From sequence record OZ035795.1: 64,000 bases of DNA. One strand, written 5' to 3'. The stretch is from Krischvirus LF73P4. A program made the position numbers and the translations under genes. Of the stretch, positions 2,686 through 61,428 are shown piece by piece (position 1 is the first letter of the stretch; each line of letters starts with the position of its first letter). The notes under the pieces were generated by a model. That model made no database searches. It was not told the DNA's origin and worked only from the letters and a program-made list of their open reading frames with translations.

Positions 2686-4348
2686 AACCTTGCGCTATCA
2701 AAATATAATGAGCGTGGGTGCTGAACCTGTTGAGATTCAGCTAGACGGATTCAAAAAGACACTAATCACTGGTGTTAACGGTGCTGGTAAATCAACAATG
2801 ATCGAGGCGCTTTGCTTTGTGTTGTTCGGTAAACCGTTTCGTAGTATCAAGAAAGGCCAATTGATTAACAGCGTCAACAAAAAGAAACTGTTAGTCGAAG
2901 TCTGGTTTGAACTGGACGGGAAAGAGTTTTATATAAAACGTGGTCAAAAACCGGAAGTATTCGAAGTGCATCGCGACGGTCAAAAGATCGACGAGAGCGC
3001 AAGCACCAAAGACTTTCAGGAATATTTTGAAGGTATCATAGGCATGAACCTAGCCAGCTTCAAACAGATCGTTGTTTTAGGCACTGCTGGTTATGTTCCG
3101 TTTATGAGTCTTCCGGCAGCGGGTCGCCGTAAACTGGTCGAGGATTTGCTTGATATTGCTACGCTAGGCGAAATGGATAAACTGAATAAAGCGTATGTGC
3201 GCGAGATTACCCAGAATATCCAAATGCAGGAAATGAAAGCTAATCACGTTCAGCAACAAATCAACACTCATAAAAAGTACATAGAAGACGCTAGCAAGGC
3301 GAGTGCCGAGAATCTCCAGCGTTTACAGAATATGTATGATAAAGAGGTAGAATCGGCTAAAGCATTTAAAGCCGAAGAAACGCGCTTGACCGATGAGCTA
3401 TTGGCTGTTGTTATGCCGGAAGATCCTAGCGCGGTATTGGCTAAAATTAATACTGCTATCGCACAGATTGGTGCGCAGATCCAGAACTTTGACCGTGTTA
3501 TCCATATGCACGAGAAAGGCGGGATCTGTCCTACGTGCACACAACCGATCATTCAGGGTAATGATCAGACTGTACGCGAACAAAAAGCACAAGCGGAACA
3601 TAAACTGTTTCTGATTGACGAGAAACGCGTAGAATACGCCGAGAAAGCAAATTCTTTCCAGGCAGCACAAACTAAGGTCTTGGAAATTAAACGCGCTATA
3701 GAGTCACAGAGAGCGAATTTAACGGCATCTGTAGGTCGTGCTAAACAGATCCAGAAAGCAATGCAGGAATTGCAAAAAGAAAGGGTTGACAATTCCGAAG
3801 AACTTGCTAAACTGGAACACGAACTGGTAGAGATTACTAATGAAAAATCAAAGCTAGTTCTTGAAAAATATCACCGTGGATTTGTAACAGAAATGTTGAA
3901 GGATTCCGGTGTTAAGGCGTCTATCGTCAAGAAATATATTCCATATTTCAATGATCGGATTGCGTATTATCTTGATATTATGGAAGCGGATTATATCTTT
4001 ACGCTAGATGAAGAGTTTAACGAAACAATCAAATCACGGGGGCGTGAATCGTTTTCGTATACATCGTTCAGTCAAGGCGAAAAGGCACGTATTGACCTTG
4101 CGATGCTCTTTACATGGCGTGATGTTGCTGGTAAAGTATCTGGTACTAATATTTCTTTGTTGGTACTCGACGAAATTTATGATGGGGCTACGGACGTTCA
4201 GGGCGTAAAAGCACTTGATTCCATCATTGACAAGTTAGATGATAACGTGTATATTATCAGCCATCGTGACCATAACCCTGATGATTTTAGCCGTCATCTC
4301 AAGATGGTTAAACGTGGGCGATTCACTGAAATGAATGTTAACATTTGA
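2666..4348 (+). CDS. 46: recombination endonuclease subunit gp46 (Rad50/SbcC-like ATPase)
   Basis: 560 aa from ATG 2666 (GGAG upstream); Walker A GVNGAGKST; N-terminus resembles T4 gp46. Confidence 0.9.
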   Translation: MAKLNFKTLRYQNIMSVGAEPVEIQLDGFKKTLITGVNGAGKSTMIEALCFVLFGKPFRSIKKGQLINSVNKKKLLVEVWFELDGKEFYIKRGQKPEVFEVHRDGQKIDESASTKDFQEYFEGIIGMNLASFKQIVVLGTAGYVPFMSLPAAGRRKLVEDLLDIATLGEMDKLNKAYVREITQNIQMQEMKANHVQQQINTHKKYIEDASKASAENLQRLQNMYDKEVESAKAFKAEETRLTDELLAVVMPEDPSAVLAKINTAIAQIGAQIQNFDRVIHMHEKGGICPTCTQPIIQGNDQTVREQKAQAEHKLFLIDEKRVEYAEKANSFQAAQTKVLEIKRAIESQRANLTASVGRAKQIQKAMQELQKERVDNSEELAKLEHELVEITNEKSKLVLEKYHRGFVTEMLKDSGVKASIVKKYIPYFNDRIAYYLDIMEADYIFTLDEEFNETIKSRGRESFSYTSFSQGEKARIDLAMLFTWRDVAGKVSGTNISLLVLDEIYDGATDVQGVKALDSIIDKLDDNVYIISHRDHNPDDFSRHLKMVKRGRFTEMNVNI

Positions 4349-12520: not shown

Positions 12521-13929
12521 TTAAAACTATCTTTTCACAGTTGATTTACAATGGCGCATTCTTTACGAATGTATGGCCTCACCTTAAAGCGGACTACTTC
12601 ACCGAAGACGAAGAAAAACTGATTTATAAGCTGATTAAAAAGCACGTAGACGAATATTCCAATATTCCTACGCCAACAGCATTACAGATTGCTTTAGACA
12701 AGGAGAGAGGCAATCAGACAACATATGAAGGGGCGAAAACTCTTCTTGATTCGCTTGAGAATACACCGGAAGACCTTGATTGGTTAATGAAGGAAACCGA
12801 AAAATTTATTCGTGACCGCGCTATGTATAATGCAATGTCACGGGCGCTAGAGATTCAGGCGAACGCACAACTACCAAAAGAGAAACAGAATAAGAAATTG
12901 CCTAGTGAGGGCGCTATTCCTGAAATTATGCAGGAAGCACTATCCATTACGTTTGATTCTGATGTAGGTCATGACTGGTTTAATGACTTTGAAAAACGAT
13001 TCTTGCTATATCAGACTAAGGCGAATAAGATCCCATTTAAGCTGCCGATGTTGAATAAAATCACGAAAGGAGGGGCGGAAAGAAAAACGCTAAATGTGTT
13101 GCTTGCTGGTGTAAACGTTGGTAAATCGCTTGGATTGTGTTCTCTTGCTGCGGATTATATGGAATGTGGTTATGATGTATTGTATATCTCAATGGAGATG
13201 GCAGAGCATGTCGTAGCCAAACGTATCGACGCAAACTTGCTTGACATTACATTAGATGAATTGGATAATGGTAATGTTTCTTTTGCGGAATATTCCGCAC
13301 GCATGAAGCGTGTTAAGAATAAGAAGATCGGGGATCGTCCGGTTGGAAAATTGATGATCAAGCAGTATCCGACTGGTGGCGCGAACTCCAATCACTTTGA
13401 GGCGTTAATGAATGAATTGCGACTCAAGAAACAGTTTAAACCTGATGTTGTGATTGTTGACTATCTTGGGATTTGCGCATCGTCTCGCTTGCGTGTATAC
13501 TCTGAAAATAGTTACACACTAGTTAAGGCGATTGCGGAAGAACTGCGAGGATTTTTTGTTAAGTGGGATGTTGTTGGTTGGACTGCGGCACAGACTACCC
13601 GCGCTGGTTGGGATGCTTCCGACCTTAACATGAGTGATACCGCTGAATCAGCAGGTCTTCCGGCTACAGCCGACTTTATGTTGGGTGTTATCGAAACCGA
13701 AGACCTGGCTAAAATGGGCGTCCAACTCATGAAGCAGATCAAGTCTCGTTACGGTGATAAGAACTATTATTCACGGTTTAACGTTGGTGTGAAGAAAGGC
13801 AATCAGCGTTGGTATGAAGTACCAAACCAGATCGCAGATCAGGAGAACGCACAAGTTAAACCACAAAGCGCACAGCAAGCCGAGAAACGCGAAAAACTCG
13901 ACGAGCTAGCAAATACCATGACTTTCTAA
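12517..13929 (+). CDS. 41: replicative DNA helicase gp41 (DnaB-like)
   Basis: 470 aa; Walker A GVNVGKS; collinear with T4 gp41 as recalled. Confidence 0.95.
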   Translation: MIKTIFSQLIYNGAFFTNVWPHLKADYFTEDEEKLIYKLIKKHVDEYSNIPTPTALQIALDKERGNQTTYEGAKTLLDSLENTPEDLDWLMKETEKFIRDRAMYNAMSRALEIQANAQLPKEKQNKKLPSEGAIPEIMQEALSITFDSDVGHDWFNDFEKRFLLYQTKANKIPFKLPMLNKITKGGAERKTLNVLLAGVNVGKSLGLCSLAADYMECGYDVLYISMEMAEHVVAKRIDANLLDITLDELDNGNVSFAEYSARMKRVKNKKIGDRPVGKLMIKQYPTGGANSNHFEALMNELRLKKQFKPDVVIVDYLGICASSRLRVYSENSYTLVKAIAEELRGFFVKWDVVGWTAAQTTRAGWDASDLNMSDTAESAGLPATADFMLGVIETEDLAKMGVQLMKQIKSRYGDKNYYSRFNVGVKKGNQRWYEVPNQIADQENAQVKPQSAQQAEKREKLDELANTMTF

Positions 13930-15556: not shown

Positions 15557-16585
15557 ATGATTTACTACGCAGATTATGAAATAGCGGAAAAAGCCATATA
15601 CGGCGAACGAAATTTTAAACGGTTGCATACTAGCTCATTTACGCTGGTCTGTAGTTGTCCGATCTGCGGTGACTCAAAGAAAAATCATACTCAAGCGCGA
15701 TTCCGTATCTATACCTATAAGGATAGTTTGCGTTGTGGTTGTTTCAACTGTAACTACAATCAGCCGTTAGGTGAATTTCTCAAACAGTATAAACCGGACC
15801 TATTCAGGGAATGGCTTATGGAGAGACGGAAGGAACAAGGCGACCACAAGAACACCACGTTCAAGCCACTGAAAAAGGTAGAAAAGCCGGAGATTAAGAA
15901 AGTGCAAACATTGCCTTTCTGCGAGAGATTAGATACTCTTCCGGCTAATCATCCTATAATAAAGTATGTCAGTGATCGTTGCATCCCTCACGATAAATGG
16001 GATCTTCTGTATTTCACGAGAGAATGGCAAAAGGTAGCAAATCACATTAAGGCTGATACTTTCAAGAACCCACAACCTGAACCGCGTTTAGTGATTCCTA
16101 TCTTTAACCGCGAGAACAAGATAGAATCCATTCAGGGGCGAGCATTGAGAAAGGATTACGGAAAGACCAAATATATGACGATTAAAACTCATGAGTTAGC
16201 GAGTAAGGTCTATGGTCTTGAACGCGCCGATCCGAGTAAGCCAGTGTATTTCTTAGAAGGTCCGATCGATTCATTGTTTATTGATAACGGGTGTGCAATT
16301 ACTGGCGGTACTTTGGGATTAGATGAAATACCTTTCCCAGACCAGCGAGTGTTTGTACTTGATGCGGAACCACGGTCTGCCGATACAATGCACCGACTGG
16401 AAAAGTTTATCAATGCAGGGGAAAAGATTGTATTGTGGGACCGTTGCCCGTGGCATTCTAAAGACGTTAACGCCATGATTCAGGACGAGGGCGCTACACG
16501 CGACCAGATCATGGAATATATCAAAGAGAACACCGTACAAGGTCTGATGGCTAAAATGCGGTTTATGAAATATTGTAAATTTTAA
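15557..16585 (+). CDS. 61: DNA primase gp61
   Basis: 342 aa; zinc ribbon CPICGDS...CFNC; strong similarity to T4 gp61 as recalled. Confidence 0.9.
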   Translation: MIYYADYEIAEKAIYGERNFKRLHTSSFTLVCSCPICGDSKKNHTQARFRIYTYKDSLRCGCFNCNYNQPLGEFLKQYKPDLFREWLMERRKEQGDHKNTTFKPLKKVEKPEIKKVQTLPFCERLDTLPANHPIIKYVSDRCIPHDKWDLLYFTREWQKVANHIKADTFKNPQPEPRLVIPIFNRENKIESIQGRALRKDYGKTKYMTIKTHELASKVYGLERADPSKPVYFLEGPIDSLFIDNGCAITGGTLGLDEIPFPDQRVFVLDAEPRSADTMHRLEKFINAGEKIVLWDRCPWHSKDVNAMIQDEGATRDQIMEYIKENTVQGLMAKMRFMKYCKF

Positions 16586-16599
16586 TTAATGAGGTGAAT

Positions 16600-17118
16600 A
16601 TGTCAGAATTTAATTCTTGTGCTGGTCTGGTTAACGAAAAAGATATTAACGCGGCTATCGCCGCATATCATCACGCTATTGCAGAAGGTAAAGATCCGTT
16701 TCAGGTGATGCTCGAAATGCAAACTGGTTTGCAGGTTGCATTATCCGAAAAATTTGATTGGGTCCCAAATCCAACTAAGCTAGAGACTTGCGGTGAAATG
16801 CTGGATTGGATGCAACGGATGGATGACGCTATCGCAGACGAAACACGAGAGCTTTACACATCGCTGGGTGGAATGTCCAATGGTAAAGATGCAAGTGCAA
16901 TCTGGAAAATGTGGAAAAAGAACCACGGAGAAGCGCGAGCGCGTAAATTCTCTGAACTGTCACCGGAAGATCAGCTTGAAGTGAAATTTGAATTTGTGGA
17001 CGCGATCCACTTCATTCTGTCAAAGATGATCCCGCTGGGTATTGACGCTCAAGAACTCTTTATTCTGTACTATCTGAAAAATGCTGAAAACTTCGCCCGT
17101 CAAGAACGCGGCTACTAA
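16600..17118 (+). CDS. hypothetical protein; possible all-alpha NTP pyrophosphatase (MazG/gp56-like)
   Basis: 172 aa; acidic ExxE / ExxD helices; product call tentative. Confidence 0.35.
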   Translation: MSEFNSCAGLVNEKDINAAIAAYHHAIAEGKDPFQVMLEMQTGLQVALSEKFDWVPNPTKLETCGEMLDWMQRMDDAIADETRELYTSLGGMSNGKDASAIWKMWKKNHGEARARKFSELSPEDQLEVKFEFVDAIHFILSKMIPLGIDAQELFILYYLKNAENFARQERGY

Positions 17119-17125
17119 AAATTAG

Positions 17126-17154
17126 TTGACACTAATCTATAATGGTTTTATTAT
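17126..17154 (+). promoter_or_regulatory. promoter candidate TTGACA-17-TATTAT
   Basis: -35 at 17126-17131, -10 at 17149-17154; abuts terminator hairpin. Confidence 0.35.
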
Positions 17155-17184
17155 GCCTCCCGTCGAAAGATTGGAGGCTTTTTT
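17155..17184 (+). terminator. rho-independent terminator whose 3' arm contains the SD of the next gene
   Basis: GCCTCC (17155-17160) / GGAGGC (17173-17178) hairpin + TTTTTT; ATG at 17188. Confidence 0.55.
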
Positions 17185-17187
17185 ATT

Positions 17188-17691
17188 ATGCAATTTACAC
17201 CAGAAGAACTTAACATCATTGATGAAGTGATGAACTCTAAAGAAAATATCGATATGTCGATCCTTAATGGATTGATCGAAAAGACTGAGCGGTTAGTGCA
17301 TCATGAAGCCTTGTATCGCGGTGTGAGCAAAAGAGAAGGCCGTAAGCTGGATACCTTAATTGTAGGTGATTCTTTCGTTGTAGAGCGTCCTATGAGCTTT
17401 ACGCCACTGAAATCAACAGCAGAGGACTTTGCAACCGATGTTTATGCAACAGGAAAGATTATTGCAATAAAACCTACCAAGCCTTGCATGAATTATTACG
17501 AACATGCTATTGACCGAGTGGTGTCTAAAGAGTATGACAATCCGACTACTCGACTGTCTTTGTATGCTATGTTGGCAGATGAGCGCGAGTGCATATACAA
17601 GACAGGGACGACCATGATCCTTGATGAGATCGAGGAAGTTTACGCGTGTAATGGCGAGCTGATAGAGATTTACAAATTTTCTTTAATTTAA
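17188..17691 (+). CDS. hypothetical protein (possible Mod-like ADP-ribosyltransferase)
   Basis: 167 aa; YRG, ST and ERE elements in the order of R-S-E ADP-ribosyltransferases; weak. Confidence 0.5.
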   Translation: MQFTPEELNIIDEVMNSKENIDMSILNGLIEKTERLVHHEALYRGVSKREGRKLDTLIVGDSFVVERPMSFTPLKSTAEDFATDVYATGKIIAIKPTKPCMNYYEHAIDRVVSKEYDNPTTRLSLYAMLADERECIYKTGTTMILDEIEEVYACNGELIEIYKFSLI

Positions 17692-17694
17692 GTG

Positions 17695-17723
17695 TTGACA
17701 GCACAAACCAGATAGACAATAAT
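17695..17723 (+). promoter_or_regulatory. promoter candidate TTGACA-17-AATAAT
   Basis: -35 at 17695-17700. Confidence 0.35.
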
Positions 17724-17752
17724 ACACACATACCAACTAAGGAGAATCAATT

Positions 17753-18508
17753 ATGAAACTGTTTGCTTTTAAATCTAACGAAGAATTGGCGCTGGTTGTT
17801 TTCCGGCTGAACTCTATCATGGCTGGTGCTTCACGTCGCAACAAAGACTTCTCTATGAGCTTAGTCACTGTGCGTAACATTTACCGACAGACTCATTGCG
17901 CCTATTCCGGTGAGGCTTTCGGTGAAGGTGATGATGGACTCTCCTTAGAGCGCATTGATTGCAATCTAGGATATGTTGATGGCAATGTAATTCCGGTTAA
18001 ACTGAAATACAATTCTTTCCGTGGCAATCACACTATCGAATCTCTTAAAGAGATCCAGGAACTAGGAACTAACGGTAAACTTTCTGATGATGAAATTGCC
18101 CTACGTGCGAAGTACATCGAGTGGATCGAACTTAACGAGAATCGCATCAAAAATCAGGAACTGGCAATCGAAGAAAAGAAATTAGCAATCGAGCGCCACA
18201 AAAAGCACAACGAACCTGAGAAAGCAGAGGCAGTCGAGCGAGCTATTAAAAATACTCTCTTCCGTATGGAAGAACGTTATCAGAAAATTGCAGATCTCAA
18301 GCAAGCCCTTAGCGAAATCAACAAGAAAGAAGAAAAACTTAAGGCTATTGCAAACAATACCGAAGTCGTGCTAAAATATACCAGCGTTTTGATTGAATCT
18401 CTTTCTAAGTATGAGAACTTAACGCCAGCACAAAAAGAACGCGTGAAATACGGGCTTCCGATTGATGCGTCGTGGATTGAATTGATGAAAGCGAAGGTAG
18501 GTTTATAA
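17753..18508 (+). CDS. hypothetical protein with coiled-coil C-terminal half
   Basis: 251 aa; AAGGAG upstream. Confidence 0.55.
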   Translation: MKLFAFKSNEELALVVFRLNSIMAGASRRNKDFSMSLVTVRNIYRQTHCAYSGEAFGEGDDGLSLERIDCNLGYVDGNVIPVKLKYNSFRGNHTIESLKEIQELGTNGKLSDDEIALRAKYIEWIELNENRIKNQELAIEEKKLAIERHKKHNEPEKAEAVERAIKNTLFRMEERYQKIADLKQALSEINKKEEKLKAIANNTEVVLKYTSVLIESLSKYENLTPAQKERVKYGLPIDASWIELMKAKVGL

Positions 18509-58227: not shown

Positions 58228-59631
58228 ATGAATAACACTATTAATCACGTAAAAGACGATGCACAGTATGTTAAGTTTGACCCTACCGGAAATTGGCCTA
58301 GCAATATAAAAAACGTACAAGCGGCATTAGCCGCTATTCAGGGGTTTGCTATTGCAGGTCTTCCAACGGCAACCGAAGAAACAGCGGGTATTGCTGAAAT
58401 TGCTACTCAAAAAGAAGTAGATGATGGGTTGGATGGAACTAAAATTGTTACCCCAAAAACATTGGCTGTTAAGCTGTCAAGACCGGACGCAACAAAACTT
58501 GTCAAAGGGATCACTCGCTATGCTAATAACGATGAAGCTATGGGCGATACTCCAAATATTGCAATTGGTCCTGATACATTAACCCATGTATTCGAGAAGA
58601 AGAAGGCAACGGAAACCGTACAGGGTACAATTAAAATCTGTTCTATGGATGCGGCAAAAATCGGTAGTGATGACACTATGGCGGTTACGCCTAAAAAGAT
58701 GCACGCTGCTATTGCTCAGATTGTTCCTGGATTGATCCCAGAGCAAAATACCGCTTCCGAATCCCGTGAGGGTCTAGTTAGGCTGGCAACAAGCCAACAA
58801 ACGCTTGCTGGTACTATCAGAGAAGGATTTGCCGTTAGCCCATATGCATTTTCCAACGCAAGAGCCAATGAAAATCAGGCGGGTACTGTTAAAATTGCGT
58901 CATCCCAACAAATGATTGACGGTAATGACAACACAGTAGTAGTATCAGCACAAAAATTTGCGAACACTAAAGCAACCACTGGACAATTCGGTGTTGTTAA
59001 GCTAACAGATAATCCCGGTTCCGGTGAAGCAAATGCTGCGTTATCTGCAAATGCTCGTGTATTGCCTCTAAGCGGTGGTGTCGTTACTGGTGATGTGTAT
59101 CGTCATAGTGGAGGTGACGGAAACCAGTTTACCACTAAAAACGAAATGGATGCATGGTGTATGCCAATTGGTGCAATTATTCTAACTGCATTCAACAGCA
59201 ATGATCATGGCGCATTTAAAATTTGTAACGGGCAATGGTTGAATAAACACCAATATCCTACGCTATTTGCTCGCATCGGATTTACATATGGTGGTGACGG
59301 TGGAGATCATTTCGCTGTTCCAGATATGCGCGGTCTTGTTGCTCGTGGGTGCGATTGGGGAAGAGGTTTAGACCCAGGTCGTGGATTTGGTACTTATCAA
59401 GACGACACCATGCAACATATGACAGGTAACTTCCCTGTAGCTAACCGTTGGCGCGGTTGGACTGGTGGTGCATTTGCCATCACAGGTGGTCAATGGAGCA
59501 CGAACTATAAAAACGGTGGTGGTGATGATTGGGGTAGTATTGTTAACTTTGACAGCGCAAGACAGGTTAGAACGTCTGGCGAAACTCGCGTTAAAAGCCT
59601 TGCATTAAACTACGTTATAAGGGTACAATAA
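58228..59631 (+). CDS. 12: short tail fibre gp12
   Basis: 467 aa; N-terminus YVKFDPTG and C-terminal AVPDMRGLVARG resemble T4 gp12. Confidence 0.85.
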   Translation: MNNTINHVKDDAQYVKFDPTGNWPSNIKNVQAALAAIQGFAIAGLPTATEETAGIAEIATQKEVDDGLDGTKIVTPKTLAVKLSRPDATKLVKGITRYANNDEAMGDTPNIAIGPDTLTHVFEKKKATETVQGTIKICSMDAAKIGSDDTMAVTPKKMHAAIAQIVPGLIPEQNTASESREGLVRLATSQQTLAGTIREGFAVSPYAFSNARANENQAGTVKIASSQQMIDGNDNTVVVSAQKFANTKATTGQFGVVKLTDNPGSGEANAALSANARVLPLSGGVVTGDVYRHSGGDGNQFTTKNEMDAWCMPIGAIILTAFNSNDHGAFKICNGQWLNKHQYPTLFARIGFTYGGDGGDHFAVPDMRGLVARGCDWGRGLDPGRGFGTYQDDTMQHMTGNFPVANRWRGWTGGAFAITGGQWSTNYKNGGGDDWGSIVNFDSARQVRTSGETRVKSLALNYVIRVQ

Positions 59632-61400
59632 TGATCGAACAATTAAACATTCGAAAGATCCCTAACGTCGATGGTGTCCCTGGAGAGGGACAACATTCTA
59701 TTAGCTGGATTAAAAATGGTGAATGTCTAAGCGCAGCAACCACAGAAACAGGACACGAGGGGACGCTTAACCGCGCCCCTTATGCGATTCAAGAAAATAT
59801 TGTTCGTTTGGATGAAAATTCTAAGACAACGGTAACAAAAGTTAACGAAGTTGTTACAGCAGTTAATGATATTAAAACTACTTTAGGCGCGGTTGCTGAT
59901 GGTAGTATTATTGATATTGTCAATCAAACTATTGCAAAGGTTGAGTCTGTAGAAGAAAATTTAGGAGAAACTTCAAGGACATTACAAACCACAGTAGATG
60001 AACTGGCGGAGACAGGAAAGAAAATTGGTGTTCGTCCGGCAGCAGATCCGAGTACACGAACAATATATGATGATATTTCTTTCATCAAACAAGAATTGGG
60101 CGCTTTCCCTAACTTCAATATCAACGGTTATCCAGATCCAGGTAGTTCCGGTTCCGGTATCAAATATAGAGTTATCCAGAATACGGAAGCATTAAACAAC
60201 CACGGTCAGCGAATCCGCCAACTAGAAAACGACTGGCAAGATTCTGACGTTGGAGAGCTAACAGAACAAGTTAACAAAATGCGAAGCGAGCTAGGAGACA
60301 CATCACTAGCAACACAGGACAATGTTTATCTTCGTCTTCGCACAAACACTCGCAATATCGCTAGTATATCAAACGAAGTTCAGGAAGTAAAGAAAGCGAT
60401 TCTATTTGAATCAATTCCCGATATCGGGACTAAAGTAACTAAGCTACAATCTGATTATACACAGCTTAATGATGAAGTCAACGGCTTTGACGCTGGTATC
60501 CGTCCTCGTTTAACTCTTCTGGAAAATAAGATCGGCAATCCTCAAGCCGCTGGAAGTATTGATTATCGATTGACCAATCAAGAACTGGAATTTGTAGATC
60601 TTAAATCTATTGTCGGTGTCAGTGGTGCTGATGGCCTACGTGGTGAGGTTGCACGAATCTCTAACACAGTTGGTACTGACAGTGAGCGTCATACTATCGC
60701 AGGTCGTCTAAAAATTGTAGAAAACACACAGGGACGACTAGAAGCTAGCGTACAGGATATCGAGCAAATGATCGGCGATCGAGATTCCGGTCTAACCGCC
60801 GGGGTTATTAAGCTGTCAAGCGACATGTACGGCAATCCAGAAGGAAGCACGCAGCTTGAACAAGATGGGATCGTGAAAACTGTTAAGGCATTGAGCACAT
60901 CAAATGCAAGCAAGGTAACAGACGTTCCTGATGATGGTTTCCATTATCTACGTAAGCACGGGGAATGGGTTCAGGTCGCATGGGCGGCTGGTGCATTTAA
61001 AAACACCGCTCAGATTGATATTACTCTCGACGGACAAGATCAATACAAAGGAATCCCGCTAAACGATATGACCGAAGAAGTTCCTGCGCGTGGAATGGTT
61101 AAGAGCGAATCTCTTGTTACGGTTAACGACAAAGGCTTATTCCGTTGTGTTTTCCGTTGTTCTGTAAATGCGGCACATAACGCTACTTTCGTAGTCGGTA
61201 TTGCTAAAAATGGTCAGATTGTACATGAGGTACGAAATGGTCATTATGGAACTGATGATTTAATTAGCTATTCTACCAGTGCTTTCCTAAATATTGAAAA
61301 GGGCGACCGGATCGATATTCGCATTAAGGGCGTATCCGAAGAAGCATTAGCGCAACAGCTACAAATTAAAGAGTTCCTCTTTGGAATTTCTCCGGTATAA
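59631..61400 (+). CDS. wac: fibritin (whisker) Wac with extra C-terminal domain
   Basis: 589 aa; N-terminus like T4 fibritin (EGQHSISWIKNGE); internal foldon-like PDDGFHYLRKHGEWV. Confidence 0.8.
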   Translation: MIEQLNIRKIPNVDGVPGEGQHSISWIKNGECLSAATTETGHEGTLNRAPYAIQENIVRLDENSKTTVTKVNEVVTAVNDIKTTLGAVADGSIIDIVNQTIAKVESVEENLGETSRTLQTTVDELAETGKKIGVRPAADPSTRTIYDDISFIKQELGAFPNFNINGYPDPGSSGSGIKYRVIQNTEALNNHGQRIRQLENDWQDSDVGELTEQVNKMRSELGDTSLATQDNVYLRLRTNTRNIASISNEVQEVKKAILFESIPDIGTKVTKLQSDYTQLNDEVNGFDAGIRPRLTLLENKIGNPQAAGSIDYRLTNQELEFVDLKSIVGVSGADGLRGEVARISNTVGTDSERHTIAGRLKIVENTQGRLEASVQDIEQMIGDRDSGLTAGVIKLSSDMYGNPEGSTQLEQDGIVKTVKALSTSNASKVTDVPDDGFHYLRKHGEWVQVAWAAGAFKNTAQIDITLDGQDQYKGIPLNDMTEEVPARGMVKSESLVTVNDKGLFRCVFRCSVNAAHNATFVVGIAKNGQIVHEVRNGHYGTDDLISYSTSAFLNIEKGDRIDIRIKGVSEEALAQQLQIKEFLFGISPV

Positions 61401-61407
61401 GAAATTA

Positions 61408-61428
61408 AAGGGGCGTTAAGCCCCTTTT
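61408..61428 (+). terminator. rho-independent terminator after wac
   Basis: AAGGGGC-gttaa-GCCCCTT hairpin followed by TTTT. Confidence 0.5.

Follow-up and report, generated by a model that had tools for sequence, protein, structure and literature searches.

Fibritin, the product of the wac gene, forms the neck whiskers of phage T4 and its relatives. In T4, the C-terminal end of fibritin contacts the long tail fibres and controls infectivity, and it is the whisker tip that touches the fibre (PMC3797505). The small foldon suffices for folding only in the fibritins of T4 and JS98, and RB49 fibritin requires sequences in its expanded C-terminal domain to fold and trimerize (Letarov and Krisch, 2013; PMC3797505). 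This longer whisker type is already known, has been described since 2005 and is found in all relatives; its C-terminal part has been called 'alien', replacing the T4 C-terminal domain, or 'unrelated' to T4 Wac (PMC3797505, PMC9569957). In the literature searched, no fold has been assigned to the RB49 fibritin head. Here, we have analyzed the wac gene of Krischvirus LF73P4 in a stretch of 64,000 nucleotides from sequence record OZ035795.1 (referred to as the window; residue numbers are those of its wac protein). Two modest additions emerged, namely that the foldon is retained with the head appended to it, and that the head has a predicted C1q/TNF-like fold.

Foldon and predicted C-terminal head

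The wac protein of the window matched PHROG 1056 ('fibritin neck whisker') with an E-value of 1e-180, and T4 fibritin (2bsg, 487 aa) aligned with its residues 7-431 in a phmmer search (E 7e-53). At the DNA level, the gene was 99.8% identical to that of vB-Eco-KMB43, 98.4% to that of JSE and 76-80% to those of RB49-like phages; DNA matches were found in 57 records, all from Krischvirus-type phages with Escherichia or Shigella as hosts. Judged by these sequence matches, the window encodes an RB49-type fibritin of an RB49/JSE-like Krischvirus.

A preliminary description of this DNA, made from its letters alone, had noticed a foldon-like stretch inside the protein at about residues 431-450. This proved correct, with a core motif (VPDDGFHYLRKHGEWVQV) occupying residues 432-449 (nucleotides 60924-60977); position 60921, which the description gave as the beginning of the feature, corresponds to residue 431. 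Pfam Fibritin_C (PF07921) matched residues 368-450 with 85.9 bits (E 2.1e-24), the cut-off being 21, and the match covered positions 2-91 of the 93 in the profile. The 20-residue foldon piece alone matched positions 72-91 (E 0.01). The T4 foldon (T4 residues 455-480) was aligned separately by HMMER with residues 424-449, and the second Pro, the Asp-Gly turn, the Tyr, the Arg-Lys pair and Gly-Glu-Trp-Val of KVTDVPDDGFHYLRKHGEWVQV were identical in the T4 foldon. Among ten divergent fibritins, including those of Krischvirus, Muldoonvirus, the Serratia phages 92A1 and 4S and a metagenomic locus (L016), no other stretch within the C-terminal 170 residues was as well conserved as the foldon, in which P, Y, R, W and Q did not vary. 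It was also the least variable region of wac in Krischvirus (17% variable columns in eleven genes, the sample used for all such figures below). In an AlphaFold2 (AF2) model of residues 368-589, the foldon took the form of a low-confidence beta-hairpin (437-442 and 445-451). By these alignments, residues 432-449 are a homologous foldon and not a chance resemblance. In terms of sequence, then, the RB49-type fibritin has kept its foldon, and a new domain has been appended after it instead of replacing it; the usual wording needs a slight correction in this respect.

Behind the foldon, the protein continues for 139 residues (451-589), as the preliminary description had estimated, against a total of 487 aa for T4 fibritin. 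The first eight of these (WAAGAFKN) appeared as a low-confidence linker. AF2 modelled the head as an all-beta domain with nine strands, a predicted local distance difference test score (pLDDT) of 75.9 and a predicted template modelling score of 0.70. Values of pLDDT below 50 were limited to the first eight residues and one loop, and the domain is therefore not disordered. Thus, the ordered model bears out the compact beta-rich domain that had been suspected, and the disorder that had been named as evidence against it was not seen in the model. A longer construct (residues 368-589) reached a pLDDT of only 52 and is of use solely in that it showed the head strands in the same order, together with the foldon hairpin.

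The head model superimposed on the jelly-roll beta-sandwich of the C1q/TNF structural superfamily. The top Foldseek matches in PDB were cerebellin, C1QL, 4-1BBL, BxpB and collagen X NC1, and those in BFVD were phage C1q-domain and collagen-like fibre proteins; a comparison with solved structures is shown in Table 1. When ten divergent heads were compared with Pfam, the only recurring matches were BclA_C (PF18573; four of the ten, best E 3.2e-4) and C1q (PF00386; three of the ten, best E 0.018), both sub-threshold. The head is thus C1q/TNF-like by its predicted fold, but falls outside the Pfam families C1q and BclA_C.

Table 1. Matches between the head model and solved structures (the figures stand without a label)
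Structure	Figure
Cyanophage A4 tail fibre (9k09)	11.0
Cyanophage A-1(L) short tail fibre, distal domain (gp33, 8ke9)	10.6
EDA-A1	10.4
Caprin-2 C1q	10.3
F-BclA, cerebellin-1	10.0
BclA	9.9
ExsFA, Photorhabdus TNF-like lectin	9.8
Lactococcal phage 1358 receptor-binding protein (RBP)	8.7
TM4 gp23 receptor-binding domain	8.2
PRD1 P5	7.8

C1q/TNF domains are compact homotrimers with their N- and C-termini at the base. The head considered here likely assembles as a trimer, because fibritin, to which it is attached, is known to form trimers. Residues invariant across genera were the AAG motif just past the foldon and the tight turns DKG, NG and GD. Since strand order can be read from the model and both termini of a C1q/TNF domain lie at its base, we infer from topology that these turns would occupy the stalk-proximal base or face of the head.

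Distribution, variation and gene neighbourhood

The occurrence of the head was examined by several searches. With tblastn, every one of the 57 Krischvirus records proved to contain the complete head, invariably within wac and with 76-99% identity; identity was 98% to the head of JSE and 78.4% to that of RB49 over all 139 residues. Searches from divergent members extended the distribution to the wac genes of Serratia phages 92A1, 4S, WSPA, PS2, Muldoon and SP1 and of Cronobacter phage VP8, which belong to Muldoonvirus or to unclassified Straboviridae, and in every one of these genes the head follows the foldon motif. The comparison of wac lengths suggested in the preliminary description gave a uniform picture, with exactly 589 codons in all 11 Krischvirus genes compared (the window and ten others) and 591-595 aa in the Serratia and Cronobacter carriers. 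Three Krischvirus-like loci with the head were present in IMG/VR. Besides an RB49-like fibritin, an exhaustive HMMER scan of 1.84 billion cluster representatives yielded only a single additional genuine relative (P0006). This fibritin of 591 aa is encoded on a T4-like contig from a metagenome, on which the genes follow the order gp10-gp11-gp12-wac-gp13 and the terminase is 74% identical to that of Krischvirus. Because the head is present in all Krischvirus records as well as in Muldoonvirus and others, it is a lineage-wide fibritin type and not peculiar to the LF73P4 genome.

Several other candidates were rejected. Two hits of the HMMER scan (P0005 and P0007) were repeat artefacts. A word-indexed search for the head returned only two 110-aa gene calls, neither of which was accepted as a free-standing head: one (P0002) is a truncated call caused by a 100-N scaffold gap with duplicated flanks inside wac, and the other (P0001), from a contig of 927 bp, is presumably truncated as well. 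An apparent head-less fibritin ending at the foldon (P0003) was a chimeric contig artefact. This contig (ENA k141_11135) begins with a GC-rich, bacterial ABC-transporter-like part, continues into a wac fragment, shows an inverted fold-back duplication after the foldon and has an Illumina adapter (AGATCGGAAGAGC) at its end. Finally, phage Skers has gp36 and gave no wac match, but it was not accepted as a natural wac deletion, as its record lacks gp9 to gp16. In this record (MW748999.1, positions 12717-13405; labelled a complete genome), gp8 is followed directly by the large terminase subunit, and about 9.5 kb with gp9-gp12, wac and gp13-gp16 is gone; an assembly gap is most likely, because essential genes are missing as well.

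Sequence variation was measured over the same eleven Krischvirus genes, and the ratio of nonsynonymous to synonymous substitution rates (dN/dS) was calculated by region with the Nei-Gojobori method in deep comparisons. The proportion of variable columns in the head (32%) was equal to that in the shaft. Its most variable part was the N-terminal 45 residues (42%), and 17-33% of positions varied in the inferred apex loops, none of which was hypervariable. The N-terminal domain (22%) was second least variable after the foldon. Values of dN/dS were about 0.05 for the N-terminal domain, 0.05-0.06 for the foldon, about 0.09 for the shaft and 0.13-0.18 for the head. Hypervariable loops tracking host range, the pattern sought as a sign of a receptor-binding protein, were not found in the head among these genes. 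In terms of substitution patterns, the head is under ordinary, somewhat relaxed purifying selection, without the signature of a receptor-binding protein.

Recombination was also seen in wac. The wac gene of ECD7 is near-identical to that of RB49 up to about codon 480 and then 97-100% identical to that of the window; in Makalu_002, near-identity to RB49 likewise ends at about codon 480, and an identity of 98-100% to the gene of the window begins near codon 500. These mosaics argue that homologous recombination has shuffled the jelly-roll core between lineages, with the breakpoint within the head and not at the foldon/head boundary. A similar switch of identity was seen near codon 540 in JK32. 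As a separate observation, the last coiled-coil segment (residues 368-426; 60732-60908) is the most variable part of wac (53% of columns, with synonymous sites saturated) and adjoins the least variable one, the foldon; at residues 401-420, nucleotide identity between JSE-type and RB49-type genes falls to 43%.

The coordinates of all features are listed in Table 2. The start codon of wac and the stop codon of gp12 share one base (TAATG). Among the open reading frames of the window, wac lies in the order gp10-gp11-gp12-wac-gp13-gp14, preceded by gp10 (600 aa), gp11 (214 aa) and gp12 (467 aa) and followed by gp13 (310 aa) and gp14 (246 aa). The same T4-like order around wac is annotated in RB49, JSE and eight other phages, gp12 being the short tail fibre and gp13 a neck protein. 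The 46-nt gap between wac and gp13 contains a hairpin. In a consensus scan, it resembled a terminator on the minus strand, and the annotation of phage GEC-3S places a terminator at the equivalent spot. Phage Brandy carries an extra hypothetical open reading frame of 141 aa between gp13 and gp14 (3635-4060 of the compared locus), which the window, RB49 and JSE lack and which may be a mobile insertion.

Table 2. Features of the wac locus in the window
Feature	Position	Strand	Remarks
wac (fibritin, neck whiskers)	59631..61400	+	589 aa plus stop; 61400 is the final base of the stop codon
N-terminal neck-attachment domain, aa 1-50	59631..59780	+	Aligns with T4 fragments 1ox3 and 2ibl (E ~2e-14) and with full-length T4 fibritin
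Segmented coiled-coil shaft, aa 51-426	59781..60908	+	T4 2bsg alignment; Pfam Fibritin_C begins at residue 368
Foldon, aa 427-450	60909..60980	+	Fibritin_C profile positions 72-91; T4 foldon alignment
C-terminal head, aa 451-589	60981..61397	+	Predicted C1q/TNF-like jelly roll
Hairpin, GC-rich, between wac and gp13	61407..61428	.	AAAGGGGC-GTTAA-GCCCCTTTT; terminator-like (predicted)

Possible roles of the head

On the basis of these results, we consider it fairly probable that the head and the foldon together form a cap that trimerizes fibritin and, at the tip of the whisker, docks the long tail fibre. The two would serve as a C-terminal nucleus for trimerization and registration, from which the coiled coil would zip towards the N-terminus. 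As the distal tip of each whisker, in place of a bare foldon, the head would contact the long tail fibre near the knee, where the enlarged gp36 is located; such a contact would aid fibre attachment and keep the fibres retracted under unfavourable conditions. C1q-, NC1- and BclA-type heads nucleate collagen-like stalks in this manner, and the foldon has this nucleating role in T4. The variation of the head, which matches that of the shaft and leaves no loop hypervariable, and its dN/dS favour a conserved partner over a host receptor. The proposal builds on the observed homology, foldon retention and distribution of the head, on a predicted fold and, with regard to the folding need, on the RB49 literature; trimer formation by the head and docking to the tail fibre are extrapolated from T4 and from co-occurrence with gp36.

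In JSE, gp36, the hinge connector of the tail fibre, has 496 aa (16548-18038 of the compared locus), compared with roughly 221 aa in T4. A full-length match to the C-terminal half of the JSE protein was present in 67 phage records, comprising 58 from Krischvirus (including Skers) and, by count, nine others. The gp36 matches listed include five of the seven distinct non-Krischvirus head carriers (92A1, WSPA, 4S, PS2 and VP8), and the nine non-Krischvirus gp36 records equal in number the non-Krischvirus head records, so that full overlap is deduced from the counts. Letarov and co-workers (2005) are reported to have found that novel C-termini of gpwac co-vary with novel C-terminal domains of gp36, and the co-occurrence of head and gp36 agrees with this. 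In addition, a 112-residue piece of the C-terminal half of JSE gp36 (query residues 127-238) matched gp34, the proximal tail-fibre subunit, of RB43-like Citrobacter, Cronobacter and Enterobacter phages with 35-36% identity.

It should be noted that a number of observations weigh against a fibre-docking, C1q/TNF-like cap. The co-occurrence with gp36 is confounded by common descent. Within Krischvirus, head variants did not track gp36 variants at the level of whole-protein identity: KMB43 has a window-like head, yet its gp36 is 90.7% identical to that of JSE, and RB49 has a head of 78% identity, yet its gp36 is 95% identical. [quoted passage not shown] With regard to the fold, the assignment depends on an AF2 monomer model computed from a five-sequence alignment. 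The Pfam scores of the head were 15.5-16.1 bits for BclA_C (gathering cut-off 38) and 14.3-14.4 bits for C1q (gathering cut-off 23.7), and a profile of ten heads gave nothing significant against PDB sequences, the matches being NCAM immunoglobulin (Ig) domains (E 0.02-0.04) and cerebellin (E 1.3).

The NCAM matches would fit another fold, in which the head is an Ig-like domain, as carried by RB43-type fibritins (PMC3797505), instead of a jelly roll; they stem from a D-x-G-x-F/Y-R-C motif in the head, which resembles the Ig F-strand motif. However, these matches, although the best that the ten-head profile found in PDB, were non-significant and span only part of the domain, and structure searches spoke against the Ig-like fold, which we therefore regard as extremely unlikely. 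Another explanation accepts the jelly roll and makes it a purely structural cap, that is, a larger foldon that nucleates or stabilizes the fibritin trimer without specific contact with fibre or host. The expanded C-terminal domain of RB49 fibritin is needed for folding (PMC3797505), and the invariant AAG motif and tight turns would lie at the stalk-proximal base according to strand topology. C1q/TNF heads, such as those of BclA and of collagen VIII/X NC1 among the fold matches, are moreover very stable trimers. Against this, the T4 foldon does the job in 27 residues and is kept here, and the T4 whisker tip does touch the tail fibre. Thus, that 139 residues behind a retained foldon have been maintained by purifying selection, and this in three or more lineages, suggests more than folding, and a purely structural role seems improbable. 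The preliminary description had held that an extension common to relatives and structural only would contradict its proposal; the extension is indeed common to all relatives, but the folding need of RB49 fibritin does not establish the latter point.

A role on the host side was the proposal of the preliminary description itself. The head might be an accessory adhesin or lectin that binds a host surface glycan or protein, mucus or environmental polymers, allowing reversible pre-adsorption or positioning without the long tail fibres. Its place at the distal whisker tip is suitable for such a function, host recognition has been raised as a possibility for the Aeh1-type fibritin (Letarov and Krisch, PMC3797505), and the fold matches include the distal domain of the receptor-binding fibre of A-1(L) (PMC10966104), the GlcNAc (N-acetylglucosamine)-bound RBP head of phage 1358, the TM4 gp23 receptor-binding domain, PRD1 P5 and the Photorhabdus TNF-like lectin. 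On the other hand, the A-1(L) distal domain in isolation bound no cells (PMC10966104), and the TNF-like knob of the Sf6 and HS1 needles sets no host specificity (PMC3741392). The lack of hypervariable loops, with a variability no higher than that of the shaft, and the purifying selection on the head (dN/dS as given above) argue against a host-range adhesin, as does its identity of 76-99% across Krischvirus phages that differ in host range. In RB49, host-range differences and spontaneous host-range mutants map to gp38 only (Efimov et al., PMC9569957). The sole published hint tying wac sequence to a receptor phenotype is a set of k-mers that predict specificity for lipopolysaccharide sugars and that lie in gp12 of Straboviridae as well as in the fibritin and baseplate-wedge genes next to it (bioRxiv 10.64898/2026.04.02.716166). 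This could be counted in favour of an adhesin, but the signal is probably explained most simply by linkage to the adjacent gp12. Taken together, an accessory adhesin appears rather unlikely. A broader version, in which the head is a ligand-binding module and the six whisker tips bind a host or environmental glycan, or a ligand cues release of the long tail fibres, is in our opinion a doubtful proposition.

Thus, the architecture that had been proposed, a fibritin with an internal foldon and a distal globular beta domain, was confirmed, whereas binding to host surfaces stays a candidate function, for which the expected variability signature was not found among the Krischvirus genes. Sensing of the environment, also suggested there, is plausible in the T4 sense only, with whisker tips holding the long tail fibres retracted. 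A fibre-docking cap, the reading that we prefer, provides a structural hypothesis for whisker folding and for the surface that would face the enlarged gp36; its practical value is small. Cocktails for phage therapy include RB49/JSE-like phages, and the control of adsorption would be affected should the head bind a ligand from the host or the environment, for which fold resemblance is the one line of support; RB49-like fibritin would then be a second, neck-borne sensor or adhesin beyond its part as an assembly aid.

Comparison with known systems

The closest described system is the RB49-type fibritin of RB49, Phi1 and JSE (Letarov et al., 2005; Letarov and Krisch, 2013), which shares the family, the type and the gp12-gp13 locus with the fibritin of the window and shows no substantive difference. 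T4 fibritin (2bsg, 1aa0, 1avy) resembles it in having a homologous N-terminal domain, a segmented coiled coil and a foldon, and differs in that it stops a few residues past its 27-residue foldon, at 487 aa, where the window fibritin adds another 139.

Outside the fibritins, trimeric heads of the fold predicted here sit on fibrous stalks in gC1q, cerebellin, collagen VIII/X NC1, the C-terminal domain of Bacillus BclA and ExsFA/BxpB. These C1q/TNF-type heads share only 8-18% identity with the head analyzed here, whose stalk is an alpha-helical coiled coil with a foldon and not collagen. Among phage proteins, gp33 of A-1(L), the A4 fibre, PRD1 P5, the 1358 RBP and the Sf6/HS1 knob have the fold predicted for the head, with sequence similarity undetectable. 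Such fibres, spikes and needles face the host, whereas the head of the window sits on a neck whisker, and in T4 the known partner of the whisker belongs to the phage itself, namely its tail fibre. The tail needles of Sf6 and HS1 are trimeric coiled coils capped by a TNF-like knob (PMC3741392) and, by analogy, would be a close architectural precedent for a fibritin carrying a head.

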